Source: an uncultured bacterium (GTDB lineage: Bacteria > Patescibacteriota > Saccharimonadia > Saccharimonadales > Saccharimonadaceae). Taken from it: a stretch of 64,000 nucleotides of DNA. How positions within the stretch are numbered: the first letter of the stretch is position 1; each line of letters opens with the position of its first letter. Both the position numbers and the translations under genes were made by a program. The notes below the pieces were generated by a model, which was not told the origin of the DNA, did not search any database, and was given only the letters and a program-made list of their open reading frames with translations. Of the stretch, positions 6,699-56,390 are shown piece by piece. The stretch is taken from contig CBHTSZ010000002.1 in the NCBI GenBank assembly GCA_966095765.1, positions 32,247 to 96,246 on the forward strand, given 5' to 3'.

Positions 6699-8210
6699 AT
6701 GGATCAAGCGCTCGCACTCGAGATTCTTCATAACGGCCACAACGTTTTGCTTACGGGTCCTGCTGGTGCCGGTAAAACGTTTGTTTTGAACCAGTTTATT
6801 CGCCAGGCAAAAGCTGATGGCAAGCATGTATCCGTCACGGCGACGACTGGTCTTGCGGCAACGCATATCGGTGGCAATACGATCCATGCGTGGAGCGGTA
6901 TCGGTGTGAGTGATGAGTTGCAAGAGGATTTCGAAGACTACCTCCTCAAAAGCCGGCGCGATATCATCGAAACAACCGATGTTCTCGTGATCGATGAGAT
7001 TTCGATGCTGCATGACTACCGACTCGACATGGTGGATACGGTAGCGCGTACGGTTCGAGATGACCCACGGCCGTTTGGTGGTATTCAGGTGGTGCTTTGT
7101 GGTGACTTCTTTCAGCTGCCGCCGGTCAATCGTGATGACAGTCGTCAAGGTGGTTTCGTGACGAATTCAAGCGCATGGCAGGAGCTCGACCTCGTTATCT
7201 GCTATCTCAACGAACAGCACCGTCAAGATGATCCGGTGTTCCTCGAAATTCTTAACGCGCTTCGTAGCGGTGATATCCGTCGCCGACATGCCGAGGCTCT
7301 GATGGAGCGTATCGATACGCATCTCGAAGACGACAATATCACTGAGCTGCATACGACCAATATCGATGTTGAGTCGATCAATCATGGACGGCTCAATGAG
7401 CTGAAGGACAAGACGTACTACTACGACATGGTGACGACCGGCAGCGAAAATTACGTTGCCTCGCTCAAGCGTTCCTGCCTCGCGATGGAACGGTTAGCGC
7501 TCAAGCCTGGTGCGCTTGTTATGGCGATAAAAAACAGCTCCGAGCGCAAGTATGTGAACGGTAGTTTGGGTGTGGTTGTTGGTTTTGAAAAGGGAACGGA
7601 CTATCCGGTTGTTGAGTTTCGAAACGGCAAGACGGTGACCATGAAGCCGGATAGCTGGGAGCTTCGTGATGGTGATAAGAAGCGCGCCGGCCTCAGCCAG
7701 ATACCTCTCCGGCTCGCCTGGGCGATTACAGTACACAAATCCCAGGGTATGACGCTCGATGCGGCGCGTATCGATCTGAGAAAGGCATTTGTCGAAGGCA
7801 TGGGATATGTGGCGTTGTCTCGTGTGAAGCGGCTCGAGAGCCTTAGTCTACTTGGCATCAACCGTATGGCGCTCAAGGTAAGCTCAGAAGCACTTGCCAT
7901 CGACGGTGAGCTGCGAAAACGTTCAGCAAGTGCTGCGAAAAAGTATGAACCGCTTCGTGCAAAAGCTGGTGAACGTCTCAAGAAGCAGGAGAAGAAACAG
8001 GCAAGCGACTGGAGCGACCGGCTCGCTAAAATGCGCGAAAAACATCCGAATGCCTACAAGCCATGGCAGGCTGCAGATGATGCGCTGCTAAGCGAACGTT
8101 TCCAGAATGGCGATGATCTCAAGACTATGTCTGAGCTGCTCGGACGTCACGAAAAGTCCATCGTCATGCGCATCCAAAAACTCTTCGGTGAAGATGCCGT
8201 GAGCGTGTAG
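6699..8210 (+). CDS. PIF1/RecD-family ATP-dependent DNA helicase
   Basis: Walker A GPAGAGKT, Walker B VLVIDEISML, C-terminal AWAITVHKSQGMTLD motif. TATAAT lies 6 nt before the ATG. Confidence 0.85.
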   Translation: MDQALALEILHNGHNVLLTGPAGAGKTFVLNQFIRQAKADGKHVSVTATTGLAATHIGGNTIHAWSGIGVSDELQEDFEDYLLKSRRDIIETTDVLVIDEISMLHDYRLDMVDTVARTVRDDPRPFGGIQVVLCGDFFQLPPVNRDDSRQGGFVTNSSAWQELDLVICYLNEQHRQDDPVFLEILNALRSGDIRRRHAEALMERIDTHLEDDNITELHTTNIDVESINHGRLNELKDKTYYYDMVTTGSENYVASLKRSCLAMERLALKPGALVMAIKNSSERKYVNGSLGVVVGFEKGTDYPVVEFRNGKTVTMKPDSWELRDGDKKRAGLSQIPLRLAWAITVHKSQGMTLDAARIDLRKAFVEGMGYVALSRVKRLESLSLLGINRMALKVSSEALAIDGELRKRSASAAKKYEPLRAKAGERLKKQEKKQASDWSDRLAKMREKHPNAYKPWQAADDALLSERFQNGDDLKTMSELLGRHEKSIVMRIQKLFGEDAVSV

Positions 8211-48784: not shown

Positions 48785-49633
48785 CTAGAGGCACCAGCGA
48801 TTTGCGCCGAGCGGGCGTATGGCCCCGCGTATTTCGAGCATTGTCATCGTCTGCGAGTAGGCGTTGGGGTCGAGCTTGCTCGTTGCCTGTAGTTCATCGC
48901 CATCTGTTATGCCTCTGGCTAGCAAATCCAGGATTGCTTGCTCTTCTCTGCTTTGTGCAAGAACCGTAAGCTGCCCGCCTTGTGTTGTTGGTAGGAGCTG
49001 TTCTACAAACTGTTCGACATTGACGATCGGCGTGGCACCTTGGGCGATGAGCGCGTTACAGCCGGCGCTCATCGCACTGGTTATTGGCCCCGGTACGGCG
49101 TAGACGTCTCTACCCTGTTCGAGTGCGTGCATGGTGGTATTCATCGTGCCGCTGCGGATACTTGCCTCGGTGACGATAACGATATCGGCGAGGCCACTTA
49201 CTAGCCTATTGCGTTCGAGGAAGCGGTATTGGAGTGGTGGTGTGCCTGGTTCGTACTCGCTGATAAGTGCCCCGTTCTGCTCTACGATCTTATGTGCCAG
49301 GGCTCGGTGTGTGCTCGGGTAGATACGGTCCACTCCTGATGGAAGTACGGCGATTGTGCGGCCACCAGCTCCCAGTGTCGCTTCATGGGCGATGCTATCA
49401 ACGCCGTGAGCAAGCCCACTGACGATAATCGCCCCACGCTCTGCGAGTCGTGAGGCGATATCAGCGGTGACCTGGCGGCCATAGGTGGTTGGTTTGCGTG
49501 TACCGACGATGGCAATACCGAGCGTGTACTCTGGTAATGCGCCGATGCTATAGAGGTGCTTTGGGCGTTGCGGTATCTCCTGGAGTCGGGATGGAAACGT
49601 CGGATCTGTACCGCTTATGCTATTGATTTTCAT
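48785..49633 (-). CDS. dprA: DNA processing protein DprA (Smf)
   Basis: GLAHGVDSIAHEATL, Rossmann-like core, C-terminal winged-helix-like tail. Confidence 0.85.
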   Translation of the reverse strand: MKINSISGTDPTFPSRLQEIPQRPKHLYSIGALPEYTLGIAIVGTRKPTTYGRQVTADIASRLAERGAIIVSGLAHGVDSIAHEATLGAGGRTIAVLPSGVDRIYPSTHRALAHKIVEQNGALISEYEPGTPPLQYRFLERNRLVSGLADIVIVTEASIRSGTMNTTMHALEQGRDVYAVPGPITSAMSAGCNALIAQGATPIVNVEQFVEQLLPTTQGGQLTVLAQSREEQAILDLLARGITDGDELQATSKLDPNAYSQTMTMLEIRGAIRPLGANRWCL

Positions 49634-49653
49634 AAAAAAGGTGTTAAATAGTA

Positions 49654-49682
49654 TTGACTTTATGTCTAAACAGTGCTAATAT
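49654..49682 (+). promoter_or_regulatory. promoter of the orphan RNA locus
   Basis: TTGACT (49654-59) - 17 nt - TAATAT (49677-82). Confidence 0.55.
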
Positions 49683-49688
49683 ACTGTA

Positions 49689-50073
49689 TGGTTGATCGCG
49701 AAAGCGTTCAAACGCACCTTATACCCCCAATTCTAACGTAAGTTAGAGTGCGCGTGTACTAGCATTGAAGTTTTCTACCCTCCACTTCAACGCATCAAAT
49801 AGTCACGTGCATACTAACCCCTTTAACCCCTTATTATCTCTGCGAGGTGGTAAGGACCCCGATTTTTCAGGCGGACCACGTTATGGCAAGTATGAAGAAC
49901 TGGTTTATCCCAGGCGCACGATGCGTACCTAAATACATCAGTAGCGCTTTGCCGTGAGTAGCCCGGGTGGGTTGAAGGGTCGAATGGTGCCAGGTGATGC
50001 CCACCCTTACCTGGTACCTTTCGAAGAATACGGTATAAGAAAATAACCCCGATATATGTCGGGGTTATTTTTA
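49689..50073 (+). ncRNA. candidate structured non-coding RNA (~385 nt), class unknown
   Basis: No credible ORF. Bracketed by a promoter and a terminator. GNRA-capped hairpins at 49697-49706 and 49733-49746. 7-bp hairpin 49765-71/49784-90. Long-range 8-bp complement 49718-25/50032-39. Interleaved (pseudoknot-type) pairings 49965-71/50000-06 and 49986-94/50010-18. Confidence 0.45.
50042..50073. terminator. bidirectional terminator
   Basis: aataaccccga-tatatg-tcggggttatt with T/A runs on both sides. Confidence 0.7.
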
Positions 50074-50099
50074 TGGTGAGTAATATGGCAAATGCAAAC

Positions 50100-50138
50100 G
50101 CCCCCGACCGTTTATGGGTCGGGGGCTTTGTTTGACAG
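50100..50138. repeat. palindromic terminator element, variant copy, with TTTGTTTGACAG tail
   Basis: gcccccgac-cgtttatgg-gtcgggggc followed by tttgtttgacag. Lies directly after the cassette C stop. Confidence 0.6.
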
Positions 50139-50148
50139 TATGGACTGC

Positions 50149-50388
50149 TTATCGGTAGTGGGGGTACTTGCCGGACTCGACGCCGTGGACGAGTCGCTCC
50201 AAGCTCGTCTTGTCGTGATGCTTGGCGGCTCGCCAGAGACGCATAAAGAGCCGTGTGCGCTCTCGTCGGGTGCCCATCTCGGGCCTGTAGGTGATCTCTT
50301 CTGAGCCGTCTTCCATGATCGTTACGTCGAGCAGCATGAACGCTCGCAGCAGCGGCATCATGACGAGCAGGCGCAGGTAGCTGAACAT
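50149..50388 (-). CDS. GC-rich hypothetical protein (cassette C, 79 aa)
   Basis: ATG at 50388 follows the shared leader. High GC3. Sequence MFSYLRLLVMMPLLRAF... Confidence 0.55.
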   Translation of the reverse strand: MFSYLRLLVMMPLLRAFMLLDVTIMEDGSEEITYRPEMGTRRERTRLFMRLWRAAKHHDKTSLERLVHGVESGKYPHYR

Positions 50389-50403
50389 GATCGTTCTCTT
50401 TTC

Positions 50404-50470
50404 TGTCAAAACTCCATTTCGGAGCGGTGGTGGGCTGGAGAATCTCGCGGCTTTCGCCGCTCGACGAAAT
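50404..50470 (-). promoter_or_regulatory. conserved 5' leader stem, copy 1 (cassette C)
   Basis: Minus strand: TTTCGTCGAGCGG...CCGCTCCGAAAtggagttttgacag. Starts ~8 nt after the -10. Confidence 0.55.
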
Positions 50471-50478
50471 TAAATGCA

Positions 50479-50507
50479 ATCTTAGTATTGGATCGATAGT
50501 TTGTCAA
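50479..50507 (-). promoter_or_regulatory. promoter of cassette C
   Basis: Minus strand: TTGACA - 17 nt - TAAGAT. Confidence 0.55.
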
Positions 50508-50564
50508 CGTTTCAGAAATGAACTAAGCCCTGACAAAACGTCAGGGCTTAGAGCTTGGGTTGGA

Positions 50565-50735
50565 TCAGACGAGGCGCAACTGGCGCCAGATGAACTGGTT
50601 CTTCCGCTGCTTGCCAAAGTGGGGCTGCAGTTCGGCGTGTACGTTACAAAACGGGACCAGACCGCGTGTCTCGGAGTTGTGCTCCCAGGTTGCGATGTCG
50701 CCGCAGTCACTGCAGACTTCGAGCTCCAGGCTCAT
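50565..50735 (-). CDS. GC-rich hypothetical small protein (cassette D, 56 aa), Cys/His-containing
   Basis: MSLELEVCSDCGDIATWEHNSETRGLVPFCNVH... has a CxxC...CxxH zinc-ribbon-like pattern. Follows the shared leader. Confidence 0.5.
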   Translation of the reverse strand: MSLELEVCSDCGDIATWEHNSETRGLVPFCNVHAELQPHFGKQRKNQFIWRQLRLV

Positions 50736-50763
50736 GATACATCGTCCTTCTTTCAAGCTCCTT

Positions 50764-50809
50764 GTCTCGGAGCGGCCGACAAAAAAATACGCTCCGCCGC
50801 TCGACGAAA
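50764..50809 (-). promoter_or_regulatory. conserved 5' leader stem, copy 2 (cassette D)
   Basis: Minus strand: TTTCGTCGAGCGGC...GCCGCTCCGAGAcaaggagcttgaaag. Confidence 0.55.
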
Positions 50810-50817
50810 CTCATATA

Positions 50818-50846
50818 ACGATAAGCTAGATGGTTGTCGTGGTCAA
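50818..50846 (-). promoter_or_regulatory. promoter of cassette D
   Basis: Minus strand: TTGACC - 17 nt - TATCGT. Confidence 0.45.
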
Positions 50847-50852
50847 TAAATG

Positions 50853-50890
50853 AACAACCCCCGGCATGAAAACCGGGGGTTGTTTGACAG
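50853..50890. repeat. palindromic terminator element, copy with loop CATGAAAA
   Basis: aacaacccccgg-catgaaaa-ccgggggttgtt followed by tgacag. Confidence 0.7.
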
Positions 50891-50891
50891 G

Positions 50892-51302
50892 CTAGCGGCC
50901 GAGCTTCTTGAGGTTCTCGATTGCCTCGCAGAGACGCGCGGAGGTCATGGTGTCTCGAAGATTTCGTGATCGGGGAAAGATATCAATTTTGCCGTTCGAG
51001 AGAACGAACACCTGGCTGTGTTGGTAGCCTGGTGCGTCCATGTAGGGCTCCTTGAAAATTTCCCAAGCCGCTGTTTGATTAACAGTAACCTCCTTGCCCG
51101 ACCACCAAGAGCGCTTGGTCTGGCCCAGCAATACTCCGCCCGGCCATCCCTTCGCTTCGAGGCGTCGGAGCGCCGACTTCGCTTCCTGCTGAAGTTCCGA
51201 CCAGAGATGCTCAAGTCTGACTTGATCTTCACGCTCACGCTGTCGACTTGCTGCCTGCCTGCCCGCTTCTCGCTGCCTAAGGATTTCCTCGGGGGTGGGC
51301 AT
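50892..51302 (-). CDS. GC-rich hypothetical protein (cassette E, 136 aa)
   Basis: ATG at 51302 after GAAGGTG. Charged N-terminal helix (REAGRQAASRQREREDQVRLEHLWSEL). The C-terminal half aligns loosely with cassette F. Confidence 0.55.
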   Translation of the reverse strand: MPTPEEILRQREAGRQAASRQREREDQVRLEHLWSELQQEAKSALRRLEAKGWPGGVLLGQTKRSWWSGKEVTVNQTAAWEIFKEPYMDAPGYQHSQVFVLSNGKIDIFPRSRNLRDTMTSARLCEAIENLKKLGR

Positions 51303-51327
51303 GGGTTCACCTTCTCTCTTCTCTTGC

Positions 51328-51385
51328 CTGTCAAACTTCCTTTCGGAGAGACAGGATGTGTGGACATCGAGTCTCTCGACGAAAC
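51328..51385 (-). promoter_or_regulatory. conserved 5' leader stem, copy 3 (cassette E)
   Basis: Minus strand: TTTCGTCGAGAGAC...GTCTCTCCGAAAggaagtttgacag. Inner stem changed on both arms. Confidence 0.55.
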
Positions 51386-51392
51386 TGATGTA

Positions 51393-51421
51393 AAAATAAA
51401 ACAAAATCTATATATTGTCAA
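51393..51421 (-). promoter_or_regulatory. promoter of cassette E
   Basis: Minus strand: TTGACA - 17 nt - TATTTT. Confidence 0.45.
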
Positions 51422-51425
51422 TATG

Positions 51426-51464
51426 AAACAACCCCCGGTTTTCATGCCGGGGGTTGTTTGACAG
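51426..51464. repeat. palindromic terminator element, copy with inverted loop TTTTCATG
   Basis: aaacaacccccgg-ttttcatg-ccgggggttgttt followed by gacag. The 32-nt core is the exact reverse complement of 50853-50884. Confidence 0.7.
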
Positions 51465-51469
51465 GTGAC

Positions 51470-51868
51470 TCAGCAGTATTCGAGCGCCTGGATGGACCGG
51501 AATAGCAGATCCAGTCGGTCCAGGTCGTACTTGCCGAGCTGGGCTCGAATGTACTGTCCGCCGCCAGCCGCCGCGTAGACGATGCCGTCGGAGCCGAGAT
51601 AGAGCGTTCCCATCTCGTCACGCCATACCTCGTGGAGGTGCAGCGTGCTGCCGCTCCAGCCACGCAGCGGGCCCAAGAGGCGGTGGGCCTTACCCTGCCG
51701 GCGGACTGAAGCAACGAAGCCGCACCGCGTGGTGCTGCGGAGGGACCGGGCGACACGCATGCCCTCGTGATGGATGGCGCCGAGAAGCTCTTCTTTCCTG
51801 ATGTCGTTTCGCATGCTTCCCGGCAGCGAAACGGCGTGGAAGGTGCTAAGCAACTGCAGTGGTGACAT
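51470..51868 (-). CDS. GC-rich hypothetical protein (cassette F, 132 aa), Arg-rich
   Basis: SD GAAAGG before the ATG. Very high GC3. Own promoter directly after the pth stop. Confidence 0.6.
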   Translation of the reverse strand: MSPLQLLSTFHAVSLPGSMRNDIRKEELLGAIHHEGMRVARSLRSTTRCGFVASVRRQGKAHRLLGPLRGWSGSTLHLHEVWRDEMGTLYLGSDGIVYAAAGGGQYIRAQLGKYDLDRLDLLFRSIQALEYC

Positions 51869-51956
51869 AGCGATGCCTTTCGATGTCTCGTGCGTGACCT
51901 GCCAAACTACATTTGGATACGCGAAAGTTGCCCTTCACGCTTAACAAACTGTGCTC

Positions 51957-51991: not shown

Positions 51992-52546
51992 TTAGGCGTG
52001 CGTCGTGGATTCGAAAGAGCCGGAGATAAAGCGATCGATGATCGTGGAGACTTTGCTTACGAGTTGGTCAAGCGCTTCGTCCTCGGTGCGAGTGAAGTTA
52101 CTGAGTACAAAGTCGGCGTCATCGATGCGGTCACGGAGCTCGTTATAGACACCGATGCGGATACGGGCGGTACCCTGTCCGAGATGCTGGTTCATCGACT
52201 TGATGCCGTTGTTGCCAGCGTCAGAACCGCCGATACGTGTACGGATCGTGCCGAACGGTAAAGCAAGCTCGTCATGAACGATAAGTACGTCTTCGGGTGC
52301 GATCTTGTAAAAGTCACTGATGAGGCGTGCGGCTTCACCGGTGAGGTTGTAGTACGTTGTCGGTTTGGCGAGAATGATCTTTTCGCCGCCTACAGCGAAC
52401 TCGGCGACACAGGCGCGGAACTTCTCTTTTATAGAGAACTCGATACCTTTCTCTTTGGCGTATTCGCTCAGCATGCGAAACCCGACATTGTGGCGGGTAT
52501 TCTTAAACTTTTCTTCTGGGTTGCCGAGGGCGATGATCAGCTTCAT
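51992..52546 (-). CDS. pth: peptidyl-tRNA hydrolase
   Basis: MKLIIALGNPEEKFKNTRHNVGF. Start reassigned to the ATG at 52546. Confidence 0.9.
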   Translation of the reverse strand: MKLIIALGNPEEKFKNTRHNVGFRMLSEYAKEKGIEFSIKEKFRACVAEFAVGGEKIILAKPTTYYNLTGEAARLISDFYKIAPEDVLIVHDELALPFGTIRTRIGGSDAGNNGIKSMNQHLGQGTARIRIGVYNELRDRIDDADFVLSNFTRTEDEALDQLVSKVSTIIDRFISGSFESTTHA

Positions 52547-52568
52547 ATCTGTCGTTAAGTATAGAGTA

Positions 52569-52597
52569 TTGCATAAATAGTAAACATATGCTATAAT
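52569..52597 (+). promoter_or_regulatory. promoter of cassette G
   Basis: TTGCAT - 17 nt - TATAAT. Overlaps the divergent pth upstream region. Confidence 0.6.
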
Positions 52598-52658
52598 ATA
52601 TAAGTTCGTAGTCCTTCGCCTCCGGATCGTCCGGAGGCTCCTTCCCCAAGGAGAGAAC

Positions 52659-53030
52659 ATGAACAAGTACCAGAAGATCGCGTTCGCCGCGCCTGCTGCA
52701 CTGGCAGTCGCCTTCCTGATCGCTTGGGTCTACGGCTTCGACGGCCTCGGTCTGGCGATCATCGTGACGCTCATCATCGCGCTGCTCACGCTGCCGATCG
52801 TCTGGAGGGCCATCTACGGGCTCGTCCAGCTGATCGCCAGTACCATCGCCTTCATCGGACACGGTGTCGGCAAGATCGGCGACACCGTCGCAGACTTCGC
52901 CTTCACCCGCCGTCAGCGCCTGGCCTCTGCGGCCAACAAGGTTCCCGACTGGGACACCCTGCGCAAGGCGGATGTCGACGAGTCACGTGCGAGTATCGAC
53001 GATCTGCTGCAGCCCCACCCCGTATCCTGA
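52659..53030 (+). CDS. GC-rich hypothetical membrane protein (cassette G, 123 aa)
   Basis: SD AAGGAGAG. About three TM helices followed by a charged tail. High GC3. Leader contains hairpin cctccgga-tcg-tccggagg. Confidence 0.65.
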   Translation: MNKYQKIAFAAPAALAVAFLIAWVYGFDGLGLAIIVTLIIALLTLPIVWRAIYGLVQLIASTIAFIGHGVGKIGDTVADFAFTRRQRLASAANKVPDWDTLRKADVDESRASIDDLLQPHPVS

Positions 53031-55691: not shown

Positions 55692-56390
55692 TTACCTCGC
55701 GGTGGTCTCTAGGGTTGTGCCCTCTGCGAGACCGTCTAAGGCGTAGGGACCGAAATGGGTGCGGTGTAGTCTAACGACGGTGTAACCAAGTGCGGCAAAC
55801 GTACGACGGATCTGACGGTTACGGCCCTCAGACATTATGACGCGCCACTCGGTCCGGTTGTCGTCGGACATGCGCTCGAGCGTGAGTTTGCTCTGCCCGT
55901 CTTCGAGCGTGACGCCATAGTCATTGATCATCTGCTGGTGAAGCGGCTCGAGCTCATGATCGACCTCGACCTCATAGACTTTTCGCTTTTGAAACTTCGG
56001 ATGCGTCATTCGGTGTGCGAGGTCGCCGTCGTCTGTGAGGAGCAAGAGGCCCGAGCTGTCTCGGTCAAGGCGGCCGACTGCTTTGAGCTTCTGCTGGTCG
56101 TCGCTCAGCAGTTCGTAGATCGTTGGGTAATCACCCTGGCGTCGACGCGAGCAGACATAGCCGACTGGCTTGTTGAGCATGAGGTAGGTGTATGCGTGTG
56201 ACTGGCCACCGCCGATTGCCTTGCCGTCGAGCTGAACATTATCTCCGCTACCTACTTGCGATCCCATAGCGGCTTTTTCTCCGTTGATCGTTACTCGACC
56301 AGCAGAGATTGCATTATCAACCTCGCGGCGGCTGAGGCCGGTAGCGTGCGCAATGTATTTGTTGACACGTGTCGTGCCTTCGTTATCCAT
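55692..56390 (-). CDS. rluB: pseudouridine synthase, RsuA/RluB family
   Basis: N-terminal S4 domain (KYIAHATGLSRREVDNAI). Catalytic GRLDRDSSGLLLLT. Confidence 0.85.
   Translation of the reverse strand: MDNEGTTRVNKYIAHATGLSRREVDNAISAGRVTINGEKAAMGSQVGSGDNVQLDGKAIGGGQSHAYTYLMLNKPVGYVCSRRRQGDYPTIYELLSDDQQKLKAVGRLDRDSSGLLLLTDDGDLAHRMTHPKFQKRKVYEVEVDHELEPLHQQMINDYGVTLEDGQSKLTLERMSDDNRTEWRVIMSEGRNRQIRRTFAALGYTVVRLHRTHFGPYALDGLAEGTTLETTAR

Follow-up and report, generated by a model that had tools for sequence, protein, structure and literature searches.

The interval between dprA and pth in a genome of the Saccharibacteria raises a twofold question: is the segment at positions 49,654–50,073 of the 64-kb stretch of DNA analysed here (contig CBHTSZ010000002.1 of assembly GCA_966095765.1, from an uncultured member of the Saccharimonadaceae; hereafter, the window) a gene, and what could its product do? 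A sequence-only reading had described it as a unit running from a promoter to a terminator and encoding a large, highly structured RNA, and the motifs it relied on (promoter, hairpins, helices and terminator) were all found in the sequence where it had placed them. The first half of the question has a firm answer: positions 49654–50021 (+ strand) almost certainly hold a real gene for a structured RNA, one that is conserved to great depth and represents a family not listed in Rfam. The gene encodes a stand-alone, single-copy, large structured non-coding RNA specific to Saccharibacteria, and its description as a structured promoter-to-terminator unit is upheld by the stability of the fold, by covariation and by a promoter that a consensus scan detected.

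Regarding its structure, the + strand between 49688 and 50075 has a minimum free energy (MFE) of −152.9 kcal/mol, compared with −104.7 ± 5.8 kcal/mol in dinucleotide shuffles (z = −8.3); the − strand of the same region has z = −6.0, and G-U pairs at many positions are compatible with the + strand only. The conserved fold is a chain of domains: P1, P2, a helix of P3ext and P3 around the P4 loop hairpin, a variable domain closed by P6, and P7. In the seed, an alignment of 29 sequences with P1, P3ext, P3 and P4 drawn by hand, 89% of the cells are paired, compared with 30–42% when the partners are slid, and 25 of 33 pairs have compensatory changes. The covariance model R1 was built from this 29-sequence seed alignment of the 5′ domain; the model-based alignment of the 5′ domain, with 83 distinct sequences, has 91.5% of cells paired and a covariation score of 0.57, as against 27–44% with slid partners and ≤0.07, respectively, and compensatory changes in 27 of 32 pairs. 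In the 3′ part, P7 has compensatory changes in 7 of its 8 stem pairs (69 sequences). As for P6, the main family has U-A as the central pair, relatives from the gut have A-U or C-G and one sequence has C.C; the neighbouring pair switches between U-G and U-A, and locus L022 has a matched one-base insertion on both P6 strands. Compensatory changes are above both the shuffled and the slid controls, the pattern expected of a conserved structured RNA.

As for its distribution, a DprA-guided scan of species-representative genomes returned 22 loci, 15 of them titled Candidatus Saccharibacteria or Saccharimonadales; nhmmer and blastn searches with the RNA matched 12 of these 15 at E ≤ 1e-3, directly upstream of dprA and on the other strand, and the remaining three had short conserved-block matches, which makes 15 of 15 despite a DprA identity of just 40–60%. 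The alignments share one pattern, a conserved promoter followed by invariant blocks with variable stretches between them. The two-block pattern TACCCTCCAC...CTAAYCCCTTTAAC was found in at least 120 further metagenome loci, plus one in IMG/VR, and the family now counts more than 135 related loci in total. R1 has a single match in the window (49687–49827, 119.7 bits); among other sequences, it gave 91 matches in 100 sources and, in a further 51 sources, 44 strong main-family matches and three weak ones, with none in the loci from other phyla among the searched sources. Public DNA runs that contain the RNA sequence come from groundwater, soil, sediment, root, rhizosphere and leaf, and in those runs the RNA segment is conserved better than dprA. 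One contig filed as viral (L143, IMGVR_UViG_3300049064_000004, 7975–8173) carries a full main-family copy with an R1 score of 65 bits; misbinning of Saccharibacteria DNA is the probable cause, rather than carriage by a phage.

A second subfamily was reached through locus L007, a DprA relative whose RNA is divergent: starting from L007, a protein search and contig look-ups led to further relatives from gut and rumen (L144–L149), and all those with upstream sequence carry a homologous RNA there. R1 scores these gut members at 15–19 bits only, and they retain P1, P2 as a separate self-contained hairpin, P3ext, P3, the B hairpin, P6, a compact variable domain and P7, whose loop is the same GAUGCCCACCCUU; they are without the ACCCCC part of the A-block and the GGGUGGG of the D-block, two conserved segments described below. 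Runs with the gut form derive from bovine, sheep and other gut samples, and, with the gut subfamily beside the main family, the RNA therefore spans environmental and host-associated Saccharibacteria.

The extent of the gene was defined from its promoter onwards. The promoter (49650–49682, +) consists of AGTA-TTGACT, with the −35 box at 49654–59, a 17-nt spacer ending in the TGc of an extended −10 element, and the −10 box TAATAT at 49677–82; its sequence, AGTATTGACA...TGCTAAAAT, is kept in the alignments of both the main and the gut subfamilies. It is a near-consensus, strong promoter of the sigma-70, housekeeping type, and transcription is predicted to start at about 49688–49690. The conserved RNA body, as delimited by nhmmer/blastn, alignments A1–A8 and R1, covers 49688–50021 (+, ∼334 nt), and its length among family members varies from ∼245 to >450 nt. 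A U-run directly follows P7 in most relatives, so that P7 is taken as the intrinsic terminator of the family; in the window P7 is followed by UUU only (50019–21), and in the fold the stem can be extended by pairing UCGAA (49980–84) with UUCGA (50020–24). A second hairpin, AAAAUAACCCCGA-UAUAUG-UCGGGGUUAUUUU (AAAATAACCCCGA/TCGGGGTTATTTT, 50042–50073), could terminate transcription in either direction according to the fold; it is clade-specific, being present in the close relative L020 and absent from most homologues, and it is probably the actual stop for the transcript of the window and for the genes that converge on it from downstream. The length of ∼385 nt first proposed, with an end at this hairpin, has to be corrected: the conserved RNA is ∼335 nt long and ends at the 49986–50018 hairpin. 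Thus delimited, the gene has the layout of a stand-alone small RNA (sRNA) gene, with a sigma-70-type promoter directly upstream, P7 plus a U-run in most relatives and no co-oriented gene after it; most genomes have no same-strand gene downstream of the RNA, and pth converges on it wherever it is on the locus.

The same homologues bear on whether the segment encodes a protein or has no function at all. The candidates are a 17-codon leaderless open reading frame (ORF) with its ATG at 49688, which the sequence-only reading had allowed for, a 55-aa ORF on the + strand and a 218-aa ORF on the − strand; such ORFs exist mechanically, the ATG coincides with the predicted start site, and leaderless genes are apparently common in this genome. 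However, no ORF is conserved among 112 homologues, as the earlier remark that the segment has no credible ORF would lead one to expect: the longest ones are anywhere between 27 and 106 aa in length, only 20 of the 112 have an ATG close to the 5′ end, and the peptides encoded there are unrelated or in other frames, so the 17-codon ORF has to be given up. The commonest 5′ sequence is nACGAUUGG, and most relatives have ACG or GCG at the position of the ATG of the window. Substitutions follow the rules of base-pairing and not those of codons, and a coding or non-functional segment is the least credible of the explanations weighed here.

The RNA was then compared with known families. Rfam 15 had no matches at gathering thresholds in the 64-kb window and in 14 homologous loci, and relaxing the limit to E ≤ 5–10 (window and homologous loci, 20 in all searches) produced inconsistent sub-threshold noise, nearly all of it on terminator hairpins; no account of the RNA turned up in full-text searches of the literature. 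A very diverged version of a universal RNA, namely RNase P RNA, transfer-messenger RNA (tmRNA), signal recognition particle (SRP) RNA or 6S RNA, was considered, given that the size is near that of RNase P RNA. Locally, the strings GGGUUGAAGGGUG or CCUCCAC are weakly like those of the RNase P specificity domain in the E. coli sequence. RNase P RNAs of the candidate phyla radiation are diverged and can fall below Rfam thresholds (PMC8172020), and for this reason the RNase P motifs were checked directly: 0 of 112 sequences have CR-I GGAAAGUCC and CR-V ACAGAA...GGCUUA in their proper order, RF00010 and RF00011 have no match at E ≤ 10, nor has any Rfam model on the RNA body at that limit, and the 5′ and 3′ ends, whether in the manner of RNase P P1 or of 6S RNA, pair no better than in shuffled controls. 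Regarding tmRNA, ARAGORN found no tRNA or tmRNA in the window, and T-loop or CCACCA strings are present in 2 of 112 sequences; the GGAA/AGCA motif of SRP RNA helix 8 is found in 0–1 of 112, with no Rfam match. The rod of 6S RNA, closed by the ends and with a central bubble, is not found either, the covariation-supported fold consisting of local domains in a chain. The order of the helices, as proven by covariation, maps onto none of the four RNAs; this explanation is close to refuted, and the sequence-only reading was right in not assigning the RNA to RNase P, tmRNA, 6S, SRP or a riboswitch class.

The elements of the fold are described from the 5′ end, all on the + strand. P1, the 5′ hairpin UUGA-u-CGC GAAA GCG-u-UCAA (49692–49711), has compensatory changes in 7 of 7 outer-helix pairs, and its sequence differs among relatives; covariation confirms the hairpin of which cgc-GAAA-gcg was read earlier at 49697–706, but its GAAA is not conserved as a GNRA loop. 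P1 is followed by a conserved linker, the A-block GCACCUUAUACCCCCA (49714–49729), nearly invariant in alignments A1, A4 and A5, for which no pairing partner was found; in the gut subfamily it reads GCACCUAAAUAAAU, and only GCACCU is common to both subfamilies. A pairing between the A-block and the D-block (CACCUU:AAGGGUG) was rejected by inspection, because the D-block positions vary freely and without compensation.

The P2 hairpin, UCUAAC-GUAA-GUUAGA (49732–49747; core ctaacGTAAgttag, 49733–46), is conserved as a hairpin, outside the pairs counted for covariation and with P3ext in competition for its 3′ strand, whereas the GUAA that the sequence-only reading took for a GNRA cap is not conserved as such. 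Large insertions occur here in relatives, with extension stems in the loop; the 5′ strand of P2 is missing in L030 and L056, and L067 has two copies of GUUAGA. Locus L089 (2730–3050) has an apparent insertion of ∼120 nt within the P2 region, which splits its R1 match in two. The next helix is composed of P3ext and P3: the 5′ strands (49742–49756) are GUUAG at 49742–46 and 49749–56, and the 3′ strands (49804–49818), which fall within the R1 match, are 49804–11 for P3 and CUAAC at 49814–18 for P3ext; 13 of the 16 pairs have compensatory changes, and 95–99% of cells are paired. Among the variants of P3ext are GUUGG:CCAAU in L001, AUUAG:CUAAU in L004 and, in the gut subfamily, GUUGC:GCAAY, AUUGC:GCAAU and GUUAC:GUAAC. 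P2 and P3ext are mutually exclusive because both use GUUAG 49742–46; in the alignments both pairings look maintained, and the two may represent a conformational alternative.

P3 encloses P4 (49765–49790), in which UUGAAGU (49765–71) pairs with ACUUCAA (49784–90) around a 12-nt B-loop, UUUCUACCCUCC; the inner four pairs are 99% paired and the outer ones covary, so that covariation confirms the 7-bp hairpin recognized earlier. The conserved core of the B-loop, UACC(C)UCCAC, resembles the anti-Shine-Dalgarno sequence, and the B-block of the gut subfamily reads UUACCUCCACUU; pairing of the B-loop with the D-block shows one compensatory and one non-compensatory change, both in L007. The C-block CCCUUUAACCC (49819–49829) is the 5′ strand of P6 and pairs with 49969–79 in the MFE fold; the core of this nested helix, CCCUUUAAC (49819–27) with GUUGAAGGG (49971–79), closes a variable domain (49830–49964) of ∼45–160 nt among relatives, whose consensus fold, attempted on 12 comparable sequences only, was uninformative. 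The D-block GGGUGGGUUGAAGGGUCGAAU (49965–49985) contains both the 3′ strand of P6, GGGUUGAAGGG (49969–79), and GGGUGGG (49965–71); the latter is a candidate partner of the E-loop, the invariant AUGCCCACCCU (49997–50007) located in the loop of the terminal hairpin P7, GGUGCCAGGUG/UACCUGGUACC (49986–50018). Expansion segments of relatives occupy fixed peripheral sites, namely P2, P5, the variable domain and the linker between the D-block and P7.

The sequence-only reading had also joined distant parts of the molecule, with less success. Of the two interleaved helices of its pseudoknot, the pairing of ggtgccagg (49986–94) with cctggtacc (50010–18) is P7 and covaries, but that of gggtggg (49965–71) with cccaccc (50000–06) never does: GGGUGGG is altered without compensation in ∼19 relatives (L023-type sequences, L052, L128, L089 and all gut members). 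Some complement of the E-loop is kept in all 137 members, being GGUGGG in the D-block in 118 and in the variable domain instead in 11, and a 5- to 6-nt complement in the rest; from these alignments, an E-loop pseudoknot is plausible but unproven, and its partner is ambiguous. The helix supposed to close the molecule, cttatacc (49718–25) with ggtataag (50032–39), is dropped, having no counterpart in most relatives and a 3′ strand that lies beyond the conserved 3′ end, in strain-variable DNA.

These last elements are those that a ligand-sensing or catalytic RNA would employ, its pocket being built from P3, P6, the D-block and the E-loop pseudoknot, and P2/P3ext acting as the switch. The two mutually exclusive helices, both apparently maintained, and the presence of an E-loop complement in every member speak for such an RNA; however, it would have nothing downstream under its control, since pth runs towards it in the main family and, in the gut family, topA is served by its own promoter, and no riboswitch or ribozyme model matches. 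This explanation is improbable, and the regulated same-strand gene that a riboswitch or a cis-acting leader would have downstream was not found.

As for the surroundings of the gene, in the window it is flanked by ORFs for DprA (48785–49633, −), a protein with no exact match on record, and peptidyl-tRNA hydrolase (pth; 51992–52666, −), and, where these neighbours are on the locus, the order in the main family is almost always topA, dprA, RNA, pth, der; the RNA lies on the strand opposite to all four genes and converges on pth, hence it is an independent transcription unit and not a leader. In two of ∼130 RNA-motif loci dprA is downstream of the RNA. In three of five gut loci (L146, L147, L149) dprA is inverted, with topA (−) and the RNA (−) followed by dprA (+) and pth (−), and L145 has dprA (+) and pth (−); in this subfamily the divergent RNA–dprA pair is inverted as a unit, and topA is next on the RNA strand, but a terminator and a separate promoter-like TTGACC lie in between.

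Such a constant association with dprA could point to a local role, by which the RNA gene would control dprA through competition of back-to-back promoters or as antisense to the dprA 5′ end. The dprA ATG (49633) is 20 nt away from the −35 box of the RNA in the window, and 10–20 nt away in nearly all loci; the divergent pair survives the inversion in the gut subfamily, and the conserved AGTATT and TGCTAA of the RNA promoter, on the dprA strand, read as AATACT (−10-like) and TTAGCA (−35-like) with an 18-nt spacer. From their positions, the RNA and dprA promoters may overlap and diverge, in which case the dprA leader would be very short. On the other hand, the candidate promoter on the dprA strand matches at 8 of 12 positions only and was not flagged by the promoter scan, a covarying structure of 300 nt is unnecessary for promoter competition, and ∼8 loci with at least 2.8 kb of upstream sequence have the RNA and no dprA (L026, L034, L036, L082, L111, L114, L115, L127). 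Control of dprA is, on these grounds, an unlikely function. A −10 box for dprA inside the A-block (TATAAG) was also tried and rejected, its final base being G and the motif varying among loci.

On the other side of the gene, pth lies 0.45 to 3.9 kb away from the RNA, depending on the locus, and metagenomic relatives of the window are without parts of the 50.1–51.9 kb islet, with joints at 50014>50842, 50021>50513 and 50071>50853. The RNA is therefore a syntenic core gene and the islet an insertion that starts right after it, and not, as had been supposed, a GC-rich cassette islet with the RNA inside. The region right after the RNA gene is, from these comparisons, an insertion hot spot. In the window, the islet (50080–51950) comprises three small units on the − strand, each with its own promoter-like site (51421, 50846, 50507) and a terminator-like hairpin (50884–50853, 50551–50523, 50126–50100); its ORFs have no Pfam matches. 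In some genomes the same region holds instead one gene of 190–290 aa on the RNA strand (locus coordinates: L001, 3505–2636; L006, 3469–2876; L009, 3514–2789; L010, 3514–2951), which means that the hot spot does not have a conserved content.

Expression was approached through public metatranscriptomes. Contigs from soil, rhizosphere and peat have matches to the conserved blocks of the RNA, and matches to the flanking genes are largely missing from them; they are assembled contigs without strand or end information, and the contig of one homologue has a depth ∼10-fold above the others. The gut subfamily has metatranscriptome contigs with the same pattern. The pattern is consistent with an abundant transcript.

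As for function, the reading preferred here, advanced tentatively, is that the RNA works in trans as a scaffold whose C-rich loops are offered to strands of a G-rich or Shine-Dalgarno-like kind, or to a factor reading the 16S rRNA 3′ tail. Three C-rich elements, invariant and unpaired, would be presented by the fold: the linker GCACCU..., UACC(C)UCCAC of the P4 loop and GCCCACCC of the terminator loop. CCUCC, which is the core of the anti-Shine-Dalgarno sequence of 16S rRNA, recurs in the P4 loop; by capturing in trans single strands of mRNA that are G-rich or Shine-Dalgarno-like, the RNA could modulate translation, or, alternatively, its target might be the factor that normally reads the 16S 3′ tail. 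Display of the loops might be gated by the competition between P2 and P3ext and by pairing of the E-loop with GGUGGG. Unpaired C-rich motifs in apical loops, typical of C-rich-loop sRNAs, are found in the B-loop and the E-loop, which are hairpin loops of covariation-proven helices and are both kept in both subfamilies.

Several observations weigh against a display of this kind. Complements of the loops in the 64-kb window are at chance level only, and no target was found there. A Shine-Dalgarno-like motif precedes only ∼13 of 40 window genes, many of which look leaderless, and for this reason a Shine-Dalgarno-directed role would touch a minority of genes; the count, over ∼40 long ORFs, is rough, since the starts were taken from the longest ORFs. 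Deep conservation of several blocks, long-range helices and expansion segments would be expected of a ribonucleoprotein or catalytic RNA more than of an antisense regulator. Finally, the evidence for expression comes from those assembled contigs, and some of them include promoter DNA, so that carry-over of DNA is possible. Regarding the starts of genes, several in the window have a TATAAT-like box 5–10 nt before the start codon (e.g., 4311, 6699, 28476, 55692–56390). Many mRNAs of this Saccharibacterium may be leaderless, as the sequences before the start codons suggest.

The same conservation can be read in terms of proteins: the RNA may belong, as subunit or scaffold, to a ribonucleoprotein specific to the lineage, or may sequester proteins, which would make it an RNA of the 6S/Ms1, CsrB, OLE or raiA type, a possibility put forward as tentatively as the display of loops; the repeated UACCC-type elements might then be protein-binding sites and not pairing seeds, a view that is likewise tentative. 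The (U)ACCC core is common to four conserved blocks, the conservation extends across lineages with DprA only ∼45% identical, the fixed core carries its expansion segments at P2, P5, the variable domain and the D–P7 linker, and the promoter is strong and of the housekeeping type. Against this, no linked protein gene co-occurs with the RNA, whose neighbours are ordinary housekeeping genes; there is no 6S-like rod, and the ends pair no better than those of shuffled controls. A broader proposal is rather unlikely as it stands: the RNA would be an unrecognised housekeeping RNA of the whole Saccharibacteria lineage, ribonucleoprotein or catalytic, in which a mimic of the 16S 3′ tail, formed by a loop, engages either the translation apparatus or a factor of ribosome assembly or initiation. 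If this were true, it could tune translation in ultra-small episymbionts whose mRNAs are apparently largely leaderless, and it would represent a new functional class and not another antisense sRNA.

Saccharibacteria are widespread ultra-small episymbionts with reduced genomes and are naturally transformable, and the RNA is common to lineages from soil, groundwater, rhizosphere and animal gut. For the cultivated strain TM7x, a 2022 preprint (10.1101/2022.03.25.485537) has it that there are no validated small RNAs; the gene described here gives these bacteria a concrete, testable RNA-based function. It is one of the few large bacterial RNA families not yet in Rfam, and the material for an entry is sufficient, with more than 135 sequences, a consensus fold and two subfamilies; in addition, the gene marks an insertion hot spot useful in strain comparison.

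In conclusion, the scaffold with C-rich loops proposed above can be set beside several known systems. RNAIII, RsaE/RoxS and 6C RNA are stand-alone regulatory RNAs, ended by a terminator, that bind mRNAs at G-rich or Shine-Dalgarno regions through conserved C-rich apical loops, and RNAIII of S. aureus is long, with many hairpins and a C-rich terminator loop. The window RNA resembles RNAIII, RsaE/RoxS and the actinobacterial 6C RNA in its stand-alone, terminator-ended gene and in its C-rich apical loops; however, no sequence or structural homology with this group was detected and there is no Rfam match, it has long-range helices (P3, P6) and expansion segments that RNAIII, RsaE and 6C do not have, and it is without an embedded ORF or a quorum-sensing context. 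RNase P RNA, including the diverged forms of the candidate phyla radiation (PMC8172020), is comparable in length, single copy, housekeeping-type promoter and under-detection by standard models in such genomes, but its GGAAAGUCC (CR-I), CR-V, P4 pseudoknot and P1 end pairing are missing from the window RNA, and the helix order differs. 6S RNA and mycobacterial Ms1 are abundant, constitutively promoted, lineage-wide and bind a core machine, which may count as a likeness; unlike them, the window RNA has no rod with a central bubble, its ends are unpaired, and it has no Rfam match. As for OLE, the raiA motif, ROOL, GOLLD and HEARO, none of their covariance models matches, and the host phylum, the dprA/pth neighbourhood and the conserved motifs are different; yet it is with these RNAs that the window RNA shares a size of 250–500 nt and very strong covariation, and like them it is confined to one lineage and was recognized by comparative genomics before a function was assigned.

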